A stretch of 62,027 bases of DNA, filler included, from Hausera hauseri (taxonomy: Eukaryota): NCBI GenBank assembly GCA_046269625.1. It is 9 parts of 9 records of this genome, joined end to end, with 100 filler letters (N's around TTAATTAATTAA, not from the genome) between each part and the next. Parts side by side here need not be neighbours in the genome. Positions count along the whole stretch, not along the records: positions 25,476 to 31,329 come from JBJURY010179195.1; 8 more parts are not named here. The stretch is one strand, 5' to 3'. The stretch's first letter is position 1. Each line of letters opens with the position of its first letter. Shown piece by piece: positions 24,501-62,027 of this stretch. The position numbers and the translations under genes were made by a program. Below the pieces are notes generated by a model. It was given only the letters and a program-made list of their open reading frames with translations. It did not search any database and was not told the origin of the DNA.

Positions 24501-25375
24501 AAAACCGAAATATTTGAATGCTGCTAAAACCCCATTGATTCGATACGCGGAGTCCGTCAAAAATTTGGTTGAGCGACGAAATGAAATCCACCTTGTCGGA
24601 AAATAATCAAACATAACGTTGATAATACATTGAGATGGATCAGGAATGAGGACTATCATACGTTCAATGATTTCTTTGGGAAGCTGGTAAATCTGAAAAA
24701 TTCGAACTTGTTCCACCACATCCACTCGGTCTCGCTTGCCAATGTCCTTTGTTCACTTCACCAAATTCACAACCTCTCGTTTCGATATTTGAAGAATCCG
24801 TATCCGATGTAAAATTCAATCTCACTGCCATACAAATTCCCGATTTGTGGAAATTTCATATCACAAAATCCCACTACGAAAAACTCGAATTGCTCTACAC
24901 GCTCAATACTAAAGACGATTTCAATAAATTGGCACTTAAATCCCGTTTGTGGTGTCTTTTACAGCGATACTACAGAAAACAACAACAACAACAGATACAG
25001 CAGCAGAAACAACATCAGCAATGGTAGTCGTAGTCAGTTAAGATTAGCTGCTGGGAAATGTTGGCTGAAACTGGCACAAGTGCAATCATTCTTGCCCACT
25101 ATCAATATTAAATGGATAAATCGATTGTCCAGCCTGATATATGATCCCTGTTCACAGGTGCGTGATGAGTTCATTAGAAAGTTATATAAGGGGCTGTATT
25201 TATTGAAACTCCCATTAGACTACATGGCCATGTTCGCTTTTGTGCCGTTCATTGTCGATTCTGAATTTCATAACAAGGCTAAAATGTCTTTTGCCAGCAA
25301 TGTAACAAGACGTTAGGAATTTTTGGATCGAAATCCTAGTTACTTGAATGATGCCAAACTCATTTTTGCTGTTCG
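24500..25375 (+). pseudogene. PDS5: Disabled, intronless fragment of cohesin regulator PDS5
   Basis: SQLRLAAGKCWLKLAQ...LIYDPCSQVRDEFIRKLYKGLYLLKLPLDYMAMFAF parallels PDS5 SRLRLAAG...[27 protein letters not shown]. Frameshift near 24580; in-frame TAA at 24810 and TAG at 25314. Confidence 0.85.
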
Positions 25376-25767
25376 NNNNNNNNNNNNNNNNNNNNNNNNN
25401 NNNNNNNNNNNNNNNNNNNTTAATTAATTAANNNNNNNNNNNNNNNNNNNNNNNNNNNNNNNNNNNNNNNNNNNNTTTCGCTGTTTGGTTTTAACCTTTT
25501 GTGGATTAATAGTATTTTGGTGCTGTATCTCTTTCGCTATGGATTCTCTAGCAAAAAAGAATTCAAGTCTTTCCTGGACTATCCAAATTAGAAAATCGAA
25601 CTTTAATTTCAGATTTTTGAAAAATCTAGAAATGTTCATGAACGGTTATCAATTTAATGTGTTGCAATTCCCTTGTATGGATTTAAAGTGATTCGAATTG
25701 AATGAAAATAATATTTTGAAGAAAGAATATTAATAATTCTTAATGTCAATGATTTTAATTATTTACT

Positions 25768-26708
25768 TGTATCGAACGTTGGCCTACTATGGCTTCGGCC
25801 GTTCACGCGATTACTTTGTGGGCTAAAGTTTAAATTAATTGAAAAGAAGATAAATGAACAACAACAAGTAGTATCTTGCAAACAAAACAAAAATTTACCT
25901 TGGAATCCAAAATGAATTGACTCGAAAATATGTATTTGCTAAAATTGTACAAAGGGAATCTAACCCTAATATCGTACAATAGGCTGCATAAAAACAAATA
26001 AAATAGCACTTTGGCTTTGGTTGTTCGTCTTGTGAATTTTTCTTTAAGCTTTTATAGTAAATTTCTATTTTGGGGGTGTTTTAGGATAAGTTAGGGTGTT
26101 TTTTGATTTGGTAGGGGTGTTTTGTTATTTCGCGTTGTTCTTTCAGATACACCTGTGGGTGGTGGTCTTATTTATGTAGTTATTTTTTGTAAAATCGTGG
26201 GTATTACTTAAATAATTTATTATATTCTGTGGGTGTTTTTATTAATTAAATTAAAAACTAAATTAATTTAAATACAAAATTAATTATATTAATTCAATAC
26301 AACAGTTCATAAAAAATCAATTTTGCGACTTTAAAATTAAAGTTTGTTAATTCATCATTTATGCAGTTGTGTTAACAAAATAATCAACAATCTATTTTCA
26401 ATTAGCAGTAACTGTAATCTATTTATAGAATATTAAATTCTCATCATTTGCTTTAGTACATAATATCATTCATTCTTAACTTCAACACATTTAGCGTCAT
26501 CACCTTAACCAAAAATTCTTAAAAACCACAACCAACAACTGCAACCATTCTCAACATTTAATCGATTTACGACATAAAAATTAACTGTGCTTTTTCTTAT
26601 AATGTTATCAGTTAATCATTTGTTTTACATTCAGTGCGTAATTTCTGTTCAAAATATATCGTAGTTGCTACTGTAACAACACATTTTTTAACTTGTTCAT
26701 CTTCAACA
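25768..26708 (-). mobile_element. Putative 3' LTR (~940 bp) of an LTR retroelement
   Basis: On the minus strand it starts TGTTGAAG directly after a purine tract, ends TTCGATACA, and has an internal CTATAAAAG TATA box near 26050. Confidence 0.55.
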
Positions 26709-26720
26709 TCATCCCCTCCT
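26709..26720 (-). promoter_or_regulatory. Polypurine tract (PPT)
   Basis: AGGAGGGGATGA immediately 5' of TGT in otherwise very AT-rich DNA. Confidence 0.6.
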
Positions 26721-26874
26721 GGAATAAAATTTTCATTAGAAAATTGTAAAGTGCTATTTTATTTTTACAAGTAAAATATAGAATGATAAAATGACAAATA
26801 TATACAAAAATGAAAAGAAAGAACAGATCTCTAGCAAATCATTCATATGTCATTTCATTAAATACATCAGTTCA

Positions 26875-29232
26875 TTAGATTTGGATTCGTAAAGTCGGTA
26901 TCGAAGATTCTTCTGCTTCCTCTCTGGTGTTTTCAGTTAGTTGGTACAAATTTTCTAGTATTAGTTCGTCTTTTCTGGCGAACAATATCATACGGATTCT
27001 TGATCTCGGAGTATTTCGTAATAATAAAGGTTTGTCCAATCTCGGCTTTGGGATTGGTATTGAGTCCAATTGCATCGGGATTGGCTGAAACGTCTCAATC
27101 GTTTGGTGGTCGAGATGTTTTATCTTGTCAATATTTGAGCCCATTAGTGCTAGATGTAGGGTATTATTCTGGGCATGTTTGTAAACGAGTCCGATGATTG
27201 TACCGTACTCACGGTTTGGTAAAATCAAACGATTTTTTGTAATCGTTGATGTTGCTTTCGGGATAAACTGAACATTGATTGACTGACTGTGACTGCCGTA
27301 TAATAAAATAGATAATTCTAATATGGCTTTGTTTGCTTTTTCTTTGAGATTTTGTATGACCTTGGTGGTGTTCTCTTTCAATTGTTTCACTAGGTCAGTT
27401 TCCTTTGGTACACTGGTTTCTTGCTTATAATCAATATGATATTTGTCTTCTATTTTATTAAAGGATCCCTGGTCCAGCAAATTGTTATTACCGGGGGACC
27501 AGTCAAATTCCCATTTTTCATTGGAACATTGTTTATCTATACTGTTATAGATTTCAAACATGGTCTGGATTATTGTATCTGCTGTTTTGGGGAAGTCATA
27601 TTGAAGACCGTACACAGTAGTTAATTGTGTTAGATTGATCTTGAGGTTGTTTTCAACGAATCGAGATTTCGTATTCTTTGTGGCTAGAAGATCAAACATG
27701 CCAAATAGGAAAGCTTCTGGGATTCTTAGCGCGCGTAGGATTGCAGCTGTATTTACGCTAATTACGACGTATCCGTAAAGGTATTGTATTAATTCTCTTC
27801 TCACTTCTTCCTCATCCGGTGATTGCTGTATAATAGGGATGGAGAGTCCGTGTATGTGCTCATTTGTATTTCCAATCCGTCGTCTTGGATTGATGTACGA
27901 CTGAAATACAATCAATTGCTGCTCATCAGCCACCATTACTTCGACCGGTACACAGTCACCGTTAGGGGCGTAAGCCAACGAGACAGAGAGATATCTGTAA
28001 TTAGGAACTGTCGTTAGTTTGTAATTACAAATATTCTTGTCAGGATATTGCAAAAATATGGGTTTTCGGTAGCCCAATAATGGATCCATTTTATAACAAT
28101 TCTCAATTCCTATTATTAAAGGTGTTTCTAAAACTCGGAAATAAAGAGGCGTCATAAGAGCCGTTGATTTAATTCGAACTGTATTCTTGTTGGCAATGAC
28201 ATTATCCTTTTCATTAGTTGAATTAAACGTATCAGCTTCTGCACGGAGTTGGATTTTCCCTCTAGCCACATGGATTAATAGTTGGTCCGTGGATGGATCT
28301 GGTTGGCATAAGGTAGTTATACTGACGTTGCATAATGCTCTCTCTAATTTTAATATCCGAAAGGATCTATCACAAATGACGGTGGTTTTAAGACTGTTTT
28401 CGAGATATTTGGTTTCGGGATATAATATGTCAATGGAGTCGTTCATTAATTCGATCATTCGTGAATAAAACTTCGATGGGTAAAGGTTTTTCTTTGGATC
28501 ATAAATTGTGACTGATCGGTTCTCTATTAACTCACTCCATAGTCTATTTTTGAGTCGATAAGTTTCGGCTTCTTGTAGATTTTCTTGTACTTGATTTATT
28601 AACTTCGATTTTTTAGATTCGGGCAAGTCCTCTAAGCCAAATCCTTTTCTACGGACTTCCACAATAGAATTTGGTCGAATATTTCTTTTACAGGGTGGAT
28701 TTCGAACCGAACTGGCAAGTATTCCTCTTTGTATCTGAAATCCGGACATCGGGTTCTGGAAGGTGAATAATTGGTTTTGCGATTCTTGTGGCAGTACAAC
28801 CCTTCTTTTAGGGTTGGGAACTACCGAAATGATTGAACTGTCAGAGTCTGATGAATTGTCCAAGTCAGGATTGTAATCATCATTTGTTTGGTTATAGTCA
28901 TTATTAACTTCATTTTCACCTGGCAAAGTGCTCAAAGAATTCATTGTGCTAAAAGAAAAAGAAGTAGTATAGCAAGTCGTATTTAATGGCTTGCTAGAAG
29001 GGTAGGTGGTTACCCTTCGATACTTTATTGGTTTTGTATGTTGGTGCAAATCTATTGGTTTAGATTTGCTATTGTGCTGTAATGCATGTGTTAATACTAT
29101 TGTTCTAGTTGGTGTGTATAATTTGGTGTGTGTATTTTTGGCATTAAATATTTTATCCCTTTCAACGTCGACTATCCACTCCACACATGTTAGACATAGC
29201 AGATGAGTTGACAATAACAAAGTTTTGTTCAT
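26875..29232 (-). CDS. Intact intronless ORF with a catalytically dead DEDDh (REX4/ISG20-like) exonuclease domain; probable start ATG 28944 (689 aa)
   Basis: ~27545-27996 reads YLSVSLAY..VEVMVADEQQLIVFQSYINPRRRIGNTNEHIHGLSIPIIQQSPDEEEVRRELIQYLYGYVVISVN..ILRAL...NLTQL..YGL...MFEIY, which follows the REX4-like pattern but lacks the catalytic D/E/H. Acceptor CTTCTTTTTCTTTTAG lies 4 nt before ATG 28944. Confidence 0.8.
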   Translation of the reverse strand: MNKTLLLSTHLLCLTCVEWIVDVERDKIFNAKNTHTKLYTPTRTIVLTHALQHNSKSKPIDLHQHTKPIKYRRVTTYPSSKPLNTTCYTTSFSFSTMNSLSTLPGENEVNNDYNQTNDDYNPDLDNSSDSDSSIISVVPNPKRRVVLPQESQNQLFTFQNPMSGFQIQRGILASSVRNPPCKRNIRPNSIVEVRRKGFGLEDLPESKKSKLINQVQENLQEAETYRLKNRLWSELIENRSVTIYDPKKNLYPSKFYSRMIELMNDSIDILYPETKYLENSLKTTVICDRSFRILKLERALCNVSITTLCQPDPSTDQLLIHVARGKIQLRAEADTFNSTNEKDNVIANKNTVRIKSTALMTPLYFRVLETPLIIGIENCYKMDPLLGYRKPIFLQYPDKNICNYKLTTVPNYRYLSVSLAYAPNGDCVPVEVMVADEQQLIVFQSYINPRRRIGNTNEHIHGLSIPIIQQSPDEEEVRRELIQYLYGYVVISVNTAAILRALRIPEAFLFGMFDLLATKNTKSRFVENNLKINLTQLTTVYGLQYDFPKTADTIIQTMFEIYNSIDKQCSNEKWEFDWSPGNNNLLDQGSFNKIEDKYHIDYKQETSVPKETDLVKQLKENTTKVIQNLKEKANKAILELSILLYGSHSQSINVQFIPKATSTITKNRLILPNREYGTIIGLVYKHAQNNTLHLALMGSNIDKIKHLDHQTIETFQPIPMQLDSIPIPKPRLDKPLLLRNTPRSRIRMILFARKDELILENLYQLTENTREEAEESSIPTLRIQI

Positions 29233-29269
29233 GATTGCTCGTTTTTTGGAAAATCTCCACCTCTAAAAG

Positions 29270-31329
29270 AAGAAAAAGGCAATTTTTCAGACTCAAAAGG
29301 ATGCAGTGAAGATGTCCAGGAAATTCTTCAATGAACAATCAACTAGTGCAGTAGTACAAACAGGAGGACGAAACAGACCTAGTGTCGCTTTGATCAGTGC
29401 AGTTAAACTGAGAAGGTAGATACATCCTGATGGCAATGCTTTTAAAATCGGATGCGAAAATTTGTACTACCTGCAACAGGACAAAATACATTTCAGGACT
29501 TTCTGGATTCTACTTTTAATGAATCAGTCGGAATATTGGAAGACAATTATTGGGAGTTGAAATCTATCAAAGTTAATTTAATATTAAAAGCCATATATAC
29601 GGGCATAGATTTTTCCTTTTTAAAACTATTTTGATGCAATACCCGCATATTATGTAATACCCACATACTGCGTAATGTAACCATATTATGTAATATCCAC
29701 TATCCGGAATAATCTCATTGTCACTAAAGTGCACAGGGCTTTGCAGTTCACGATTGGCTTCAACATGCAGAACATGATCAGTTACCTGTCCTACCAGAAT
29801 CAAAAAACCACCTGGCGGAAAATTCAGAAAATTATTAACGGGTGTCAATTTTATGTATGTCCAAACTGTGAAGTGATTTCCAGCCTACAATTCCATGAAT
29901 TTCTACAACAACATCAACATCATCTCTCATACTTCAAGAAACCGAAAAAAACTATCGTTCGAGAACACAAAGAGATGATAAACATGGCCAGACAATTTGT
30001 AGCAGACCAACAATTGCCAAGAACATCATCACTTCAACAACAACAGCAAGCAGTTAAGCGGGCAATCAAAGAAAATAAGAAGACTGCCAAGAAACAAAAG
30101 CTTGATGAACATTTGATGATTAAAAAGACTGGACAAAATATGAGACTCGATATACAATGTGTTGTTGACAATAATTATGTTACTCTTTCTTCTGATGTGG
30201 CGCCCGACCAACTTCTTTCCATTCGACCACCGGAGGAAATTTTGACTACTTTGGACTTGTACACTACTCGATTTTCTTCTTGTAAGGTTCAGTACGGTCT
30301 TGAAAATCTTTTTGAGAATGCTGAGGGTGACTTTAAAGAAGCTTATATTTGTCTTCGAGCCGTGCCTTATGAGCAATGTTTTCCACAATCTGTAGCCGAT
30401 AATTTACAGGGGGAAATAGAGAACTTTGCTGAAATGGGTCGTGGGTGGAAAATAGATAAGATTCTGAAATACTGTTTTCATATAGTAAAAACAAGCCCAC
30501 TACCTTATTTGTCTGGTAAGTCCTATATTCCAACACCCGACACTAAAAAATGCAATATCCGTTGTTAATGTACAGAATTAGGATAGTTTATGCTTTCAGT
30601 ACTCCATNNNNNNNNNNCATACTTGCCGTGACCAAATATTCTTCTATTGACATTAATAGGTGTGGATGTAGCAATTACATTTCTTAGTTAGGTGAACTGA
30701 AATATTTTTAGGATGACATGCCGATGAAAATATGCAATATAGGCAAATTTGAGAGGCAAAATCCACAATTGTTGTTTAATGTATTTCTGTTTCATGAGGT
30801 GTATGATGTGGATTTTGATTCAGATATAGTGAAAAATCCATTCGCTGATATTTTGTATAGAAGCAAAAATCCGAATGGTACTGTCGTTAATTTAGTGATT
30901 TTAGAAAATGACAACGACTTTCTCTATGTTGCTGTTCCCAACCTCAAGCGACTGTTGAATATCGACAGTAAAAAACTTCGAATTTAGTGTAAACATTGGT
31001 GTTGAAAATATTTGCATGGATTTAAGCTTGACACTACTTTTGCTAAGCATTTTTCAATGTGCAGTTCTTCTGCGAAGTGCATGACATTGTACAAAATGCC
31101 CGAAAATAAGTTTTACGAATTTATGGACTGGGCAAAATCTGAGTCTTCCTTTTTTCATATATGCTGACTTTGAATGTGTTCTTTGCCCTGACGATAAGGT
31201 TAAACATTCATCTGCCTACTGCAGCCGGTCTCTTGTTAGTAGGACTCACATGTATTGAATATAGGCAATTTGTAGGTGAAAATTCTATAGTTGAGTTTCT
31301 GGCCTATATGGAGGAATTTGTAAAGAAAC
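29270..31329 (+). pseudogene. Decayed N-terminal part of a Polinton/adintovirus-type polymerase B polyprotein
   Basis: QTGG; IENFAEMGRGWKIDKI; SYIPTP; VNVQN.D..CFQYS; PMKICNIGKFERQN; CRKCLHGF-like Zn finger; YADFECVL. Same family as 43558-46130. Confidence 0.75.
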
Positions 31330-55274: not shown

Positions 55275-56510
55275 GTGCCCAAAATAGATTTCAAGAAATT
55301 TATAACAGATTTGAGGGAAAGTATAGAAGAAAAGATGTCGGAAGGAGATGAACCTTTGGTCACTGTGCCACAACAAAGGCTAGATATGATGGTGGCGGAG
55401 CATAATATAATGAAGGCACGAAACGAAGAACTAACGACCGCCAATGAAGAATTACGTAAACTGGTGGAAAATTTGCAAAATTCAGGCTCGACGTCAGGTG
55501 CGGGAGTCAAACCGCATCCACCGAAACCAATGGCGTGGAAGGGAGATCCAGTTAAGGAAGTAGTGGATAAGATGGGAACTATGATGACAAAAATGGACCT
55601 GAATAGTAAATACCAAAACGTGCGCACTTGTGTTAAGACGTTTGATGGAACGGTGACGAAAGACTTCAAGATCTGGATGTCACAACTCGATAAATACGCA
55701 CATGTGGTGAAGGCAACTGAGGGGGAAAGAAAGGAGTTAGCCTACGCGGCCTCGGATGGGTTTGTGAGTGACTTCATCAAGAGAAGGTTGACGTCACACC
55801 CAAACGAGACATGGGAAGATTTCAAAAAGACGTTAGCCAACAGGTACGCAGAGGTGAGTGATGCACGTTATGCCATGGCTGCGCTGAGGAAAATAAAACA
55901 AGAGAGAGGGGAAAAAGTTCAACTTTACGGAGACAGAATGTTGAATATGATTGAAGAAGCCTATGCAGATCAAGATATAACGACGGAAGGGATTGGAGGG
56001 CTGTTGATTCCAATTTTCACAGATGGCTTAAGAGACAACAGAATCAAAATAGAGTTATTGAAAAAAGATCCGAAGACTATTCAAGCAGCCATACAGACGG
56101 CGGTAGAAGCAGAAAACTTCAGCATGAGAGTGAAGATGAGCTTGAGGGGAGAGAAATATGAGAGTGAGGGTGAAGAGCAAATGGAAGTAGACCAGTATCG
56201 TCATAGGTGGCAACGAAGTTCACGAGAGCATGAACAACATAGAGGCAGCAGAAACGAATGTAGAAAAATAGTCCATGAAGTTGAGAAGAGAAACCGATGT
56301 TATAACTGCGGGAAGATAGGACATATGTCAAGAGAATGTCGAAGCAAACCAGAGAGCAGCAGACAGTGCTTTAAATGTGGCAAGGAAGGGCACTTTGCAA
56401 GGGTGTGCTGGTCAAGTAACATCAGCAAACAAAGAGATACAAGAAATCAGACACAACAGGGAAACGAGTACCCCACTTCAACAAGAGCTTCCGGTGGAGC
56501 GGGGAACTAA
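55275..56510 (+). CDS. gag: Gypsy Gag with two CCHC zinc knuckles (first ATG 55335)
   Basis: Capsid-like FDG..FKIW, IKQERGEKVQLY, FTDGL; PMEVD-like QMEVD; CYNCGKIGHMSREC and CFKCGKEGHFARVC. Confidence 0.93.
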   Translation: MPKIDFKKFITDLRESIEEKMSEGDEPLVTVPQQRLDMMVAEHNIMKARNEELTTANEELRKLVENLQNSGSTSGAGVKPHPPKPMAWKGDPVKEVVDKMGTMMTKMDLNSKYQNVRTCVKTFDGTVTKDFKIWMSQLDKYAHVVKATEGERKELAYAASDGFVSDFIKRRLTSHPNETWEDFKKTLANRYAEVSDARYAMAALRKIKQERGEKVQLYGDRMLNMIEEAYADQDITTEGIGGLLIPIFTDGLRDNRIKIELLKKDPKTIQAAIQTAVEAENFSMRVKMSLRGEKYESEGEEQMEVDQYRHRWQRSSREHEQHRGSRNECRKIVHEVEKRNRCYNCGKIGHMSRECRSKPESSRQCFKCGKEGHFARVCWSSNISKQRDTRNQTQQGNEYPTSTRASGGAGN

Positions 56511-56517
56511 AGGAAGC
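56459..56517 (+). promoter_or_regulatory. -1 ribosomal frameshift signal: G GGA AAC heptamer and H-type pseudoknot
   Basis: Heptamer in gag phase; 5-nt spacer; stem 1 CCCCACTTCA (56471-80) / TGGAGCGGGG (56495-504); stem 2 GCTTCC (56487-92) / GGAAGC (56512-17). The -1 frame is open into pol. Confidence 0.85.
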
Positions 56518-59500
56518 CACAGATGTTAGAGGGCGAAGACAAGGTACAGAGAAGCCTTTGCCGAGCAAGAGAACCGTACAGACCCACTTGAACAGGATGA
56601 AGTATGACAGCGAGGAAGAAGCAAAAGGCACACTTAGAAATCAACGAAGAAACAACCAATATTACAAAAGTAGAGTTTGGGAGCGAGAAAAGCACGAAAA
56701 TTACCATCGTACACGAAGAGAATCGCCGAAGGGAAACGAAAACCAAGCGATGAGATGGTGCAAACCGAGAGTTGTAAATGAAAGAGAAAAAAGTGGAAGC
56801 CAAACAGACCCAAGAAGAAATAGTGAAAACCAGAACACTCGAAACAGCCAAAAGGAAAGGAAAACTCGAGAAAGCAGGCAACAACGTGATAAGTACCACA
56901 ACCAGAGCAACTTGATGCAAGACAAAGAGGAGCGAAGAAGAATCAGAGAGCCAGAATTCACGAGAGAAGAGAGGACAGAAAGACCCAACGAACACGAAAC
57001 GATGGAAGTTGATGAAGCTAAGAAACGAAACCAGGCGAGAAGATCAGAAAGTAAACCCCAACAGCAATTCCCTCCCATTCCCAAACTGAAGGAAGTTAAC
57101 ACCCACACCCCAAATCCCAAACAACGGTCCCGTCCCAGAAGCCAGATAAGAGAGACATCAAGAGAAGATAAACGAAAAGAGATCAAGCGGGGATATGAAA
57201 TCAACTATACCGGAGATCCAAGCTCGTGTATCATATACTTCGGGAAGGTCAGAGTGCGATGCCTAATCGACACGGGAGCCCAAGTAAGCATCCTCAGCGA
57301 AAGAGTGTATAGGCTACTGAAGAGACCAGGCAATTTGGTGCAGCAGGATGTTGATTTGAGGTCCGTATCCGGAAGTACGCTGAAGGTGCTAGGGAGAACC
57401 ACGTTGGAATTTAAGCTGGGAGGCAAAGTAATGAAACACAATTTTTTAGTGGTACGAAACATGTGTAGAAGTGCCATTATAGGACGAGATTTTCTGAATA
57501 AGAACCGGGCCCGCATTTACTTCGATTTGAAGAAATTGAGGATAAACAATGAATACATAGACCTTGAGGACGACATCCATATTGCCTCGATTATAAGGGT
57601 GAAACGCAGGATAACCATGAAGCCGAAGTCGATAAGCATTGTGGTGGCAATGATGAAAAGGAATGAATATTGGCAAGAAGGGGAGGATATAACAATAGCA
57701 GCATTAGAAGAGGGAGACATTGTTGAAGAACCGGGTTTGCAAACAGTGTGTGGCATTGTGAAGTTGAATAGAAGGAGGGAGATGCCAGTAATGGTGATGA
57801 ACCACACTGGAAAGACGATAACCCTACAGAAAGGCTGTATTATCGCAAAAGCTGAGAAGATCAAGGGGGTAGTGTGTGAAATAGACAGTAGCAAGAAGGT
57901 GAAACACCGAGACAATAGAGAGATGCGAAACGGAAGAGAAACAGAAACAGAAGAAAGAAGACAGAGAAGGTTACACAGAGATAGAATACTGAACGAAATA
58001 AGAGAGGGTCTGTGGAGAAAGAAACAGGGCAAGGAAATTGCTGAAGTGAGACAAGATAATGAAAGAACAAAGACGTTATTAGAAACGCTGAAAGTAGATG
58101 CAGTACACAAGGAAAGAATGGAGATGTTTATCAAGAAACATGCAGATGTGTTTGCTCTGTCGGATATGGAACTTGGTAGAACCCAAACCGTTACGATGAA
58201 CATAGACACTGGGGACCACGCTCCCATAAGTTCGAGACCATATAGAACACCTTTGGGGAACAGAGAAATTGTGGAGAAAGCGGTTGATGACATGTTACGA
58301 GCTGGCATAATCGAGAGAACCAGAGGAGAATGGTCTTTTCCTGTCGTAATTGTGACGAAAAAGGACGGAAGCCACAGGTTCTGCGTGGATTACAGGGCCC
58401 TGAATGCCATCACGAAAAACGTAAGTCATCCTATGCCACTCATAGATGACATCTTTGGGCTGCTGAACAACACGACTTACTTCACCACACTAGATGCTAG
58501 ATCCGGGTTCTGGTGCATCCCCATGTCACCAGAGGCGAAAGCAAAAAGTGCATTCTGCACGCACACAGGACTCTATGCGTGGAACGTGATGCCGTTCGGG
58601 TTGAAGGGCTCACCAGCCACATATATGACTCTTATGAATCAAGTCCTGGAAGGCATGCAGAGCTTCGCAGTGGCATACATTGACGATGTCCTCATTTACA
58701 CCAGAGGAGACCTAGAAGACCATCTGGAGCATGTTGAGAAAGTTTTCGAGAGAATGAGGGAACACAAGGTAAAATTGAAGCTCAGCAAGTGCGAATTTCT
58801 GAAGACAGAAACGAAATATCTGGGCTTCGTAATAACAAGAACAGGCATAAAGCCGGATGCCGATAAAGTCAAGGCAATAAGATCGATGGCCGCGCCAAGA
58901 AACACAAAAGAGGTGAGAGGCTTCTTAGGTACCTGCGGGTACTACAGGAGATTCATTAAGGATTTCTCGGTGATGGCAGAACCCTTAGTAGCCCTGACGA
59001 GGAAGTTTGCCCGATTCAAGTGGGACGAGATCTGTCAAAAAGCATTTGACCAACTGAAGGAAAAACTGACTGTGGTGCCCTTGTTAGCGTACCCTGATCC
59101 CGAGAAGAAGTACATACTGTATACGGACGCTTCAGAATATGCGATTGGAGCGGTCCTAATACAAGAAGAAGGAGAAAAGATGGTGAAGGGAAGCAAAGTC
59201 CCGGAGGAAAAGCCGATCTACTTTTTATCGCACCGCCTCACCAAATCGCAACGGAAATGGAGTGTAATCGAGAAAGAGGTGTATGCAATACATTACGCTC
59301 TACAAAAGTTGAACTTTTACCTACATAACAGCAAGTTCATTGTAAGAACCGACCACAAACCACTGAAGGCCCTACTAAAAGCAGATGTACAGAACAAGAG
59401 AATTCAGCCGNNNNNNNNNNNNNNNNNNNNNNNNNNNNNNNNNNNNNNNNNNNNNNNNNNNNNNNNNNNNNNNNNNNNNNNNNNNNNNNNNNNNNNNNNN

Positions 59501-62027
59501 NNNNNNNNNNAGTTCATTGTAAGAACCGACCACAAACCACTGAAGGCCCTACTAAAAGCAGATGTACAGAACAAGAGAATTCAGCCGTGGGCACTGAATT
59601 TGCAAGGGTATGATATGAATATAGAATATATACCGGGTCCTGAGAATACGGTGGCCGATTTGCTGTCGCGAATTCCAGACAGAAATGATGGGGTGGAAGG
59701 AACGGAAGAAGGAAAAGAAGAAGGTACGCCAGAGATCGACGACCACACATTACAAATCGCAACCATCAACACCAACGAGAAGGAATCGGGTGAAGACACA
59801 GAGGCAGAAGAAAGTGAGAGTGAAGAGGAAGATAAGGCTGAGGTGCAGGCAGAACAACAGAAAGATGAAGAGTTAAGACGAATCATTGAAGACTTGAAAT
59901 CCGGAAAAGAAGAAAGGGTGAAGAAGTGGAGAAAGTTTGTCATTGAAGATGAGATGCTATATCGAATCGGAGGTGAAACGAAAAGGAACTTACAGCTATG
60001 CATACCAGAAAGCATGAAACAACTGATCATAATACAGTACCATGACCATCTGGGACATTTGGGCAGAGACAGAACCACAGAACTAATTAGCCGGAAATAT
60101 TACTGGAAAAACATGATGAAAGAAATTGGGAATTACGTTAAGGAATGTGAGTCGTGTAAGCTAAGAAGCATGAAGATCCTGAAACATCCAATTCAAGAAC
60201 CGGAATATGCCAACTTTCCGATTGAAAAGATAAGTCTCGATCTTTCGGGCCCACATCCGCTGACAGGGTCGGGAAATAAACATATCCTCCACATCGTGGA
60301 CATCTACAGTGGTTGGCCAGAGTTGTATGCGGTACCCGACAAAGCTATGGGAAATGTAATAGATATCTTATTGGAACAATATATACCTCGATACGGATGT
60401 CCTCGAGTGATTGTCACTGACAATGGACGAGAGTTTGTGAATAAAGCGCTGAAAGAAACCCTAAAAGAACTGAACGTGAAGCACGTGACGACCTCATATT
60501 ATAATCCGGGAGCTAATGGGATTAATGAGAGGCAACATTCCACCCTATATGACGTGATAGCAAAATACACAAACGACCAACCCAAGGAATGGGATCTGTA
60601 TTTAAACCAAGCAGCAATGGTAGTGAGATTCATGGAAAACGGGAGTAGAAAGTACTCGCCATACGAGATGCTGTTCGGCAGAGAACCGATCCTACCTATA
60701 GACAACCTGCTGAAACCAAGATTGAAATATCAAGGGGAAGAGTTCCACCAGTACATGTTGCAAAAATTTCATGAAATAACGGTGAAAGTCAGTAGAAACG
60801 TGAGAGCTGCATTCCAAAAACGAAAACAGCAGAATGATCCGAAAACAGTATATCAAGAATTTGAAATAGGAGACAAGGTATACTACAGAAAGCACAGAAA
60901 AACTTCCAAAATGGACAACAATTGGTTGCCGGGATATAGAATCGCGGAGAAGCGAGGACCTATATCTTATTGGGTAGTGAATCCACTTACAGGACAGGGA
61001 GCCAAAGCCACCACAAGCCAGTTACAGAAGGATGACAAAAAGTTTCCAGAAGAACCGAAGTTGAACAAGGAAGACAGAGTACGCAAGACACGATATGTTG
61101 TACCACCGGAAGATGAAAGTGGTTCAGAAACGTCGGAAGAAGAAAGTAAAAGTACCACCGAAACATCCGATGAAGAAGAAAGTGATACAAGGTACGAAAT
61201 AGCAGTGCCATACCCAACGAGAATCCAGAACAAAACGACGAAAGAAACAGAAGCGAAAACAGAAACGGAAGCAGACAAGAGCGCGCCATATCAAAACACC
61301 CGAGCAGCTGCGAGGAAAAGATTTGAAGAAGCAAGAGCCCAGCAAATGAAGCGAAGAAGAGTAGTGTTGACCGGTTCATCAGATGATACTGACCTTCCTA
61401 TACCAGAAAGAAGGAGACGTTTAGAAGATCGAGAAAGACGACAAGCAGAAGAAGCAGAGGGAGACGACGAAGAAACGCAAGAAGAACAACCAAGAGCAAG
61501 CAAAGTCGAAGATAACAGCTCGGACACCTCAGTAGAAGACACAGATACAGAATCCTCGGAAATGGAGCAAATGGTTCGAAGAATGAAAAGGTTAAGAGAT
61601 TCAGGTACATCTGCGGAAGATGAACCTAGAACAAAGCTTACAAGACAGGCAGCAGTAAAACGGAAATATATGCGGAGAACTGAAGAAGGGAGAGAATCAA
61701 GAATACCCATAAGCGCCGCGATGAAATTAAAACGACAAACGACGGGAAAACAGTTGTCCGAAAGTCAAAGGAAGGAAGAAGCTGCGCGGACATCAGTTAA
61801 AACACAAGTTGCAGAAATAAGACGAGTAGTAAAGAAGAAAGATAAGGAAATGAAAGAAGTAAGAGAATTGGTAGAAAAAGTAGCAGAAGCCAAAAGAGAA
61901 GCAGATACCAAAGTACGCGAACTACAAAGCAAGGTGCAAGAAAGAGGAGATTTGTTGAGAGTCATGGAGACTCATTCTGCTGAACTCGAAAAAGCGAATG
62001 TCGAAAAAGCAGAAACGATTTCAAAGC
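56462..62027 (+). CDS. pol: Gypsy Pol polyprotein (PR-RT-RH-IN with long extensions); 3' partial, absent from the ORF track
   Basis: Both ends translated by hand without a stop; no internal ORF in the track implies the middle is open too. LIDTGA 57269, YIDD 58676, YTDAS ~59120, TDHKPL, H-H-CESC ~60040-60157, SLD/TDNG/NER integrase triad. Confidence 0.93.
59334..59587. other. Scaffolding artefact: 100-N gap flanked by an identical 77-bp overlap
   Basis: 59334-59410 equals 59511-59587 on either side of the Ns at 59411-59510. Confidence 0.92.

Follow-up and report, generated by a model that had tools for sequence, protein, structure and literature searches.

The window analyzed here, a 62,027-nucleotide stretch (filler included) of Hausera hauseri DNA joined from nine parts of assembly GCA_046269625.1, contains between positions 25476 and 31329 (contig C179195, record JBJURY010179195.1) a retroelement copy read on the minus strand. 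Comparison with other copies in the same genome shows that it comprises the last gene and the 3′ long terminal repeat (LTR) of a 5′-truncated envelope-carrying Ty3/gypsy element. The gene is almost certainly an accessory module of that element, and its product is predicted to be a double pseudo-enzyme that combines an oxygenase-type barrel with a DEDDh nuclease fold. An earlier note, made from the sequence alone, had proposed that a catalytically dead DEDDh protein is encoded by an accessory gene of an LTR element. This is supported, since linkage to gag-pol was found in other copies and the fold is predicted.

Linkage to gag, env, and pol

The accessory protein has 4889 candidates in the genome, and all 65 that were scored match; stop-free frames were found in 23 of 29 distinct near-complete copies. 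In contig C66660, one natural open reading frame (ORF) encodes the fusion protein, protease (PR), reverse transcriptase (RT), ribonuclease H (RH), integrase (IN), a membrane-protein region, and the accessory module, and the next ORF encodes gag, a ubiquitin-like domain, the fusion protein, and PR. Linked copies show the Ty3/gypsy order PR-RT-RH-IN, together with a polypurine tract (PPT), a TG..CA LTR, and a primer-binding site before gag; the gag-to-gag distance is ~16 kb. A class III fusion protein (PF24664, E 1e-60; residues 1461-2104 of the L044 ORF) lies between gag and pol, before the protease, so that the accessory gene, previously placed in the "env position," is not an env substitute. 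The same module follows integrase in other lineages of this genome (L103, L109, L130-L132), and the in-frame open link to an upstream membrane protein is also present in other lineages.

It is most improbable that the window copy has been exapted by the host or that it represents an ordinary cellular or Polinton gene. Its frame is intact despite truncation and an acceptor-like sequence stands at its upstream junction, but the family has many copies that are linked to gag-pol, PPT, and LTR, a linkage that refutes a host or Polinton origin of the family. In addition, its upstream DNA consists of other repeats, and intact frames are common enough (23/29) for its own to be explained by youth.

A second predicted membrane protein was observed after integrase (L043 ORF, residues ~1693-2041; L130, L131, L132, L103, and L109), with a signal-like stretch, 270-395 amino acids (aa), a transmembrane helix, and no family match. 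The accessory ORF, one LTR, a primer site, and gag follow each other head to tail in C66660 (L043/L044/L060), L029, L034, L042, L046, L056, and L101. This arrangement occurs at 6 of 12 LTR ends, and the two C66660 units are 93% identical in DNA; such units may be genuine tandem arrays, or the assembly may have collapsed their LTRs.

Two predicted folds without canonical catalytic residues

The accessory ORF and its parts are located as follows.

26875..28944, minus strand: accessory ORF encoding 689 aa, with start ATG 28944 and stop 26877-26875
28090..28536, minus strand: predicted 2-oxoglutarate (2OG)-Fe(II) oxygenase-type double-stranded beta-helix, residues 137-285
27499..28014, minus strand: predicted ISG20/REX4-like DEDDh fold without canonical catalytic residues, residues 311-482
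26878..27324, minus strand: further region of the accessory ORF

Structure searches with the protein point to a DEDD fold, predicted to be of the ISG20/REX4-like DEDDh type. The catalytic set of such nucleases (ExoI D-x-E, ExoII D, ExoIII H and D) is absent: the window protein has S-V-S at ExoI, Ile at the ExoII Asp position, and Lys and Ile at the ExoIII His and Asp positions, in residue-by-residue agreement with the pattern first noticed in the sequence (SVS for DxE, no ExoII Asp, no ExoIII His or Asp). Basic residues sit at former catalytic positions. The DEDDh part holds the most invariant positions and is the best conserved section of the protein; some acidic and His residues are invariant.

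The oxygenase-type barrel, a second dead fold that the earlier note overlooked, is predicted to have the double-stranded beta-helix and N-terminal helices of the 2OG-Fe(II) superfamily. The H-x-D/E...H metal triad is missing, the window domain having one His and no H-x-D/E. Among 26 diverse members, Y, N, K, and R residues are invariant, H-x-D/E occurs in 8 at scattered places, and a conserved metal triad was found in no member, whether its DEDDh part is dead or intact. Structure matches to AlkB and to prolyl hydroxylases are tied within ~1 Z, and an AlkB profile comparison, with a template of 3 sequences only, was negative. The Foldseek matches include N-terminal domains of vaccinia C16, at E 2e-3 and 5e-3, and other poxvirus proteins (E 4e-4 to 4e-3). 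A third folded domain, without clear structural match, is added in the model of the module. Both matched domains are very probably non-catalytic.

Two uninterrupted AlkB-family ORFs with intact H-x-D...H were also observed, at L149:1177-1965 and L150:715-2067 (both minus strand); the latter, with its long extension, is possibly borne by a mobile element.

Dead and intact relatives

ExoI D-x-E was found in none of the 66 own-genome sequences but in 26 of the 34 sequences from metagenomes, a set with some redundancy; a genome search seeded with an intact relative, in which 119 of 3611 candidates were scored, gave a best E of 2e-15. The replacements at ExoI D-x-E differ between lineages. Intact relatives carry the ExoIII His and match RNase_T/ISG20L2. 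Env-pol lies directly upstream, as a separate ORF, in 2 of 14 metagenome loci (L077 and L079, the only ones long enough), and gag lies downstream of the module in locus L083. In a quick unrooted tree (56 of 100 rows), a branch with SH-aLRT 99 separates the 14 intact sequences from the dead ones, which form several deep groups. The RT-RH regions of the dead L130 and L131 are 50-51% identical to those of the intact L077 and L079 and 36-37% identical to that of the window's family; this greater nearness to intact elements would fit either repeated loss or module exchange.

The conservation of the DEDDh part and the invariant acidic and His residues might also mean that the domain is still catalytic, as a nuclease of non-canonical type or as another enzyme, and Maelstrom illustrates that DEDD folds are able to change chemistry (PMC7968707). 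We consider such activity very unlikely, however, given the absence of ExoI D-x-E from the 66 own-genome sequences and its lineage-specific replacements.

The dN/dS values of the window copy against six relatives range from 0.096 to 0.14, and against its nearest copy it has 12 synonymous and 5 non-synonymous private changes; most distant pairs are saturated. These comparisons of coding sequence show purifying selection on the lineage, from which current use of the truncated window copy does not follow.

In one lineage (L109, L143, P0005), a C-terminal RING finger is added to the module, and a TRAF-like gene lies upstream of it in two metagenome loci (L080, L082). Such additions, like the Foldseek matches to poxvirus proteins, would suit dead folds that act as protein-binding decoys and block a host defense or signaling protein, in the manner of the inactivated poxvirus dioxygenases OPG55, OPG181, OPG20, OPG31, and OPG165 (10.1101/2022.11.22.517515). 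Nonetheless, the pairing with a nuclease fold whose catalytic residues are intact in relatives suggests nucleic acid as the target, and purifying selection is strong, the core showing no hint of rapid change (no formal positive-selection test was made), which leaves decoys an unlikely explanation, if one to be kept in mind.

Frame, start, and expression of the accessory ORF

Three features at the 5′ end of the ORF bear on its expression.

28949..28966, minus strand: putative splice acceptor (pyrimidine tract followed by AG), which would make 28948 the first base of the exon
28945..29256, minus strand: linker, joined in frame to an upstream transmembrane helix in other copies
28801..28818, minus strand: PNPKRR after an acidic stretch, predicted nuclear localization signal (conserved motif, role inferred)

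The minus-strand stop-free frame 26875-29262 has 795 codons from stop to stop and 785 from ATG 29232, as reported earlier. Because its first 96 codons show little codon-position bias (mismatches 143/164/201 in 17 copies), the 689 aa from ATG 28944 are the better-supported protein. The linker carries many small indels across copies; its DNA is more conserved than the ORF behind it, and amino-acid constraint is weak. The window DNA at 28945-29256 is 94% identical to that of L051, although the proteins encoded downstream share only 51% identity; the linker may therefore carry a signal at the nucleotide level, or the gene following it may have been exchanged.

Acceptors had been noted before both ATGs. 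The one before ATG 28944 (TTTTAG|CACAATG) has counterparts in 23 of 25 copies, with the first ATG in frame in 22 of 23 (raw count, no shuffle control), whereas that preceding ATG 29232 is not part of the element, since homology ends at 29256. NPKR(R/K) is present in all 20 aligned copies covering the site, and we take PNPKRR to be a putative nuclear localization signal. In 14 of 18 copies no stop interrupts the frame that leads from the upstream transmembrane helix into the ORF. Since acceptor and in-frame ATG are conserved and the upstream frame is also open, two products are likely: one soluble and made from spliced RNA, the other a tail released from the polyprotein.

The open frame, also seen in other lineages, and the signal-like and transmembrane stretches flanking the 270-395 aa region after integrase could alternatively mean that the module serves chiefly as the cytoplasmic tail of a type I membrane protein released from the polyprotein, and that it helps to assemble particles or to package RNA at membranes. 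We regard this as improbable: the module is a separate ORF in L109 (own genome), L077, and L079, the acceptor, ATG, and basic motif are all conserved, and the linker is weakly constrained as protein.

Polypurine tract and LTR

The 3′ end of the element contains the following features.

26709..26720, minus strand: polypurine tract (sequence and conservation across copies)
25476..26708, minus strand: 3′ LTR with TGTT start and TATA at 26056, its end missing, ~90-100 bases beyond the contig end
25478..25639, minus strand: short ORF within the LTR, conserved and ~70 codons long in full copies (codon-position variability)

The PPT reads AGGAGGGGATGA|TGTT at 26720-26709, and a G-rich tract with TGTT follows the stop codon in 38 of 40 copies listed, in accordance with the PPT|TGT described before. 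Of the ~940 bp TG...CA unit described with it, the start at 26708 and TATAAAA at 26056 hold, and the end at 25768 does not: homology with other LTRs continues to the contig end at 25476. Other copies' LTRs terminate in AACCAACA, 133-188 bases past a motif that lies 89 bases from the end of the window contig, so the full LTR would be ~1.3 kb, cut off here by the contig end. Beyond the LTR end, a TGG-type primer site and then gag follow in 6 of 12 cases and unrelated flank in the other 6. The true LTR length, the in-frame polyprotein link, and the relatives with intact catalytic residues had all been overlooked.

In full copies, the small ORF inside the LTR has a conserved Met, a hydrophobic start, a Gln-rich middle, and a basic end. 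It has no Pfam match and looks selected as a peptide because its variable columns by codon position number 16/11/30 of 32 (14 LTRs).

Flanks of the window copy

Two repeats lie beyond the upstream end of homology at 29256.

29265..29610, strand not assigned: unrelated high-copy repeat of 346 bp at the truncation point, not part of the element
29834..31329, plus strand: decayed high-copy repeat, separate from the element

The repeats have 605 and 7970 candidates in the genome, respectively. The second, called a polymerase B relic in the earlier note, is a separate repeat without a Pfam match, and the label is tentative. Among 16 copies with enough upstream DNA, 15 have the transmembrane-coding region upstream, the window copy being the sole exception, and it is therefore apparently 5′-truncated or misjoined in assembly; no junction-bridging contig was found among the public contigs listed.

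Elsewhere in the window, positions 55275-62026 (plus strand) hold another Ty3/gypsy gag-pol element with long open frames, whose pol is only 24% identical to that of the accessory-ORF family. The frame at 24813-25316 resembles part of a PDS5-type host gene and may be a fragment of one.

Proposed role and known systems

Nucleic-acid binding has about an even chance of being the main job of the protein. It would be made from a spliced RNA (junction 28948), and the 689-aa form would enter the nucleus, bind nucleic-acid ends without cutting, and shield element RNA or complementary DNA (cDNA) from host nucleases and silencing; a second form, its frame kept open, may remain joined to the upstream membrane protein as its cytoplasmic tail. 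The module would descend from an active nuclease. Protective, non-catalytic end binding is a proposal for and against which we see the balance as level, and it is based on the nuclease fold being most conserved, the basic residues at former catalytic positions, and the intact relatives. More tentatively, and with considerable doubt, an old env-carrying lineage may have an oxygenase-fold and DEDDh module that is an active 3′-5′ nuclease in some hosts and was turned more than once into a nuclear end shield against small-RNA silencing or sensing, in which two dead enzymes are combined with a third domain whose fold has no match.

Exuperantia keeps a DEDD pseudonuclease fold for RNA binding. Maelstrom and EXD1, in which the DEDD fold is kept for RNA binding without canonical catalysis, supply the precedent and the working model for end binding (PMC5408684, PMC7968707). 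All three are host genes with other partner domains, likened to the module by fold.

Among retroelements, the planarian giant gypsy Burro/GYPSM1, compared by description only, has one long ORF with gag, a ubiquitin/SUMO-like domain, and a mononegavirus-like env between gag and pol, as well as accessory ORFs that can also be polyprotein domains (PMC6431247). The element described here shares both features, a single ORF encoding its ubiquitin/SUMO-like domain in frame with env, and the MATH/TRAF gene of Burro has a counterpart beside relatives L080 and L082. However, the BIR, ankyrin, BCL2, and MATH domains of Burro had no Pfam match in the family ORFs scanned, and the unit is ~16 kb rather than >30 kb; for these reasons, the element is Burro-like and not filed as Burro, whose description, in the part covered, mentions neither a nuclease nor an oxygenase module. 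Flatworms, nematodes, and bryozoans harbor GAG-ENV-POL errantiviruses whose env is of the HSV/gB type (PMC13524379) and which have ORF order, env class, and the layout of LTR and tRNA primer site in common with the element. This likeness in order makes a flatworm the probable host. That paper and its seven supplements do not mention exonuclease or DEDD, the supplements do not mention AlkB or dioxygenase, and post-integrase genes are undescribed in the part covered.

Bdelloid Juno/Vesta LTR elements and Terminons also carry a DEDD-superfamily accessory gene at the LTR-element 3′ end (PMC5408684). The rotifer ORF3 is RNase D-like DEDDy, has intact residues, and replaces env, whereas the module described here is ISG20/REX4-like DEDDh, dead, fused to an oxygenase fold, and coexists with env. 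Orchid Gypsy elements likewise bear a 2OG-oxygenase ORF, an active AlkB m6A demethylase close to plant enzymes (PMC9289625); in contrast, the barrel of the module is unrecognizable by sequence, lacks the metal triad, and is fused to DEDDh. DEDD accessory genes and an AlkB gene were thus already known separately in gypsy elements. No description of the fused module was found in the literature searched, which included the PMC13524379 supplements and did not cover Grohme et al. 2018.

Selection maintains the module across elements with RTs only 36-51% identical, and its natural intact and dead forms allow direct comparison. To our knowledge, accessory proteins of animal retroelements that oppose host silencing have rarely been identified. 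The module is a testable candidate for the persistence of giant env-carrying gypsy elements at high copy and, if the end-shield reading is true, would be a retroelement-encoded suppressor of host defense built from dead enzymes.
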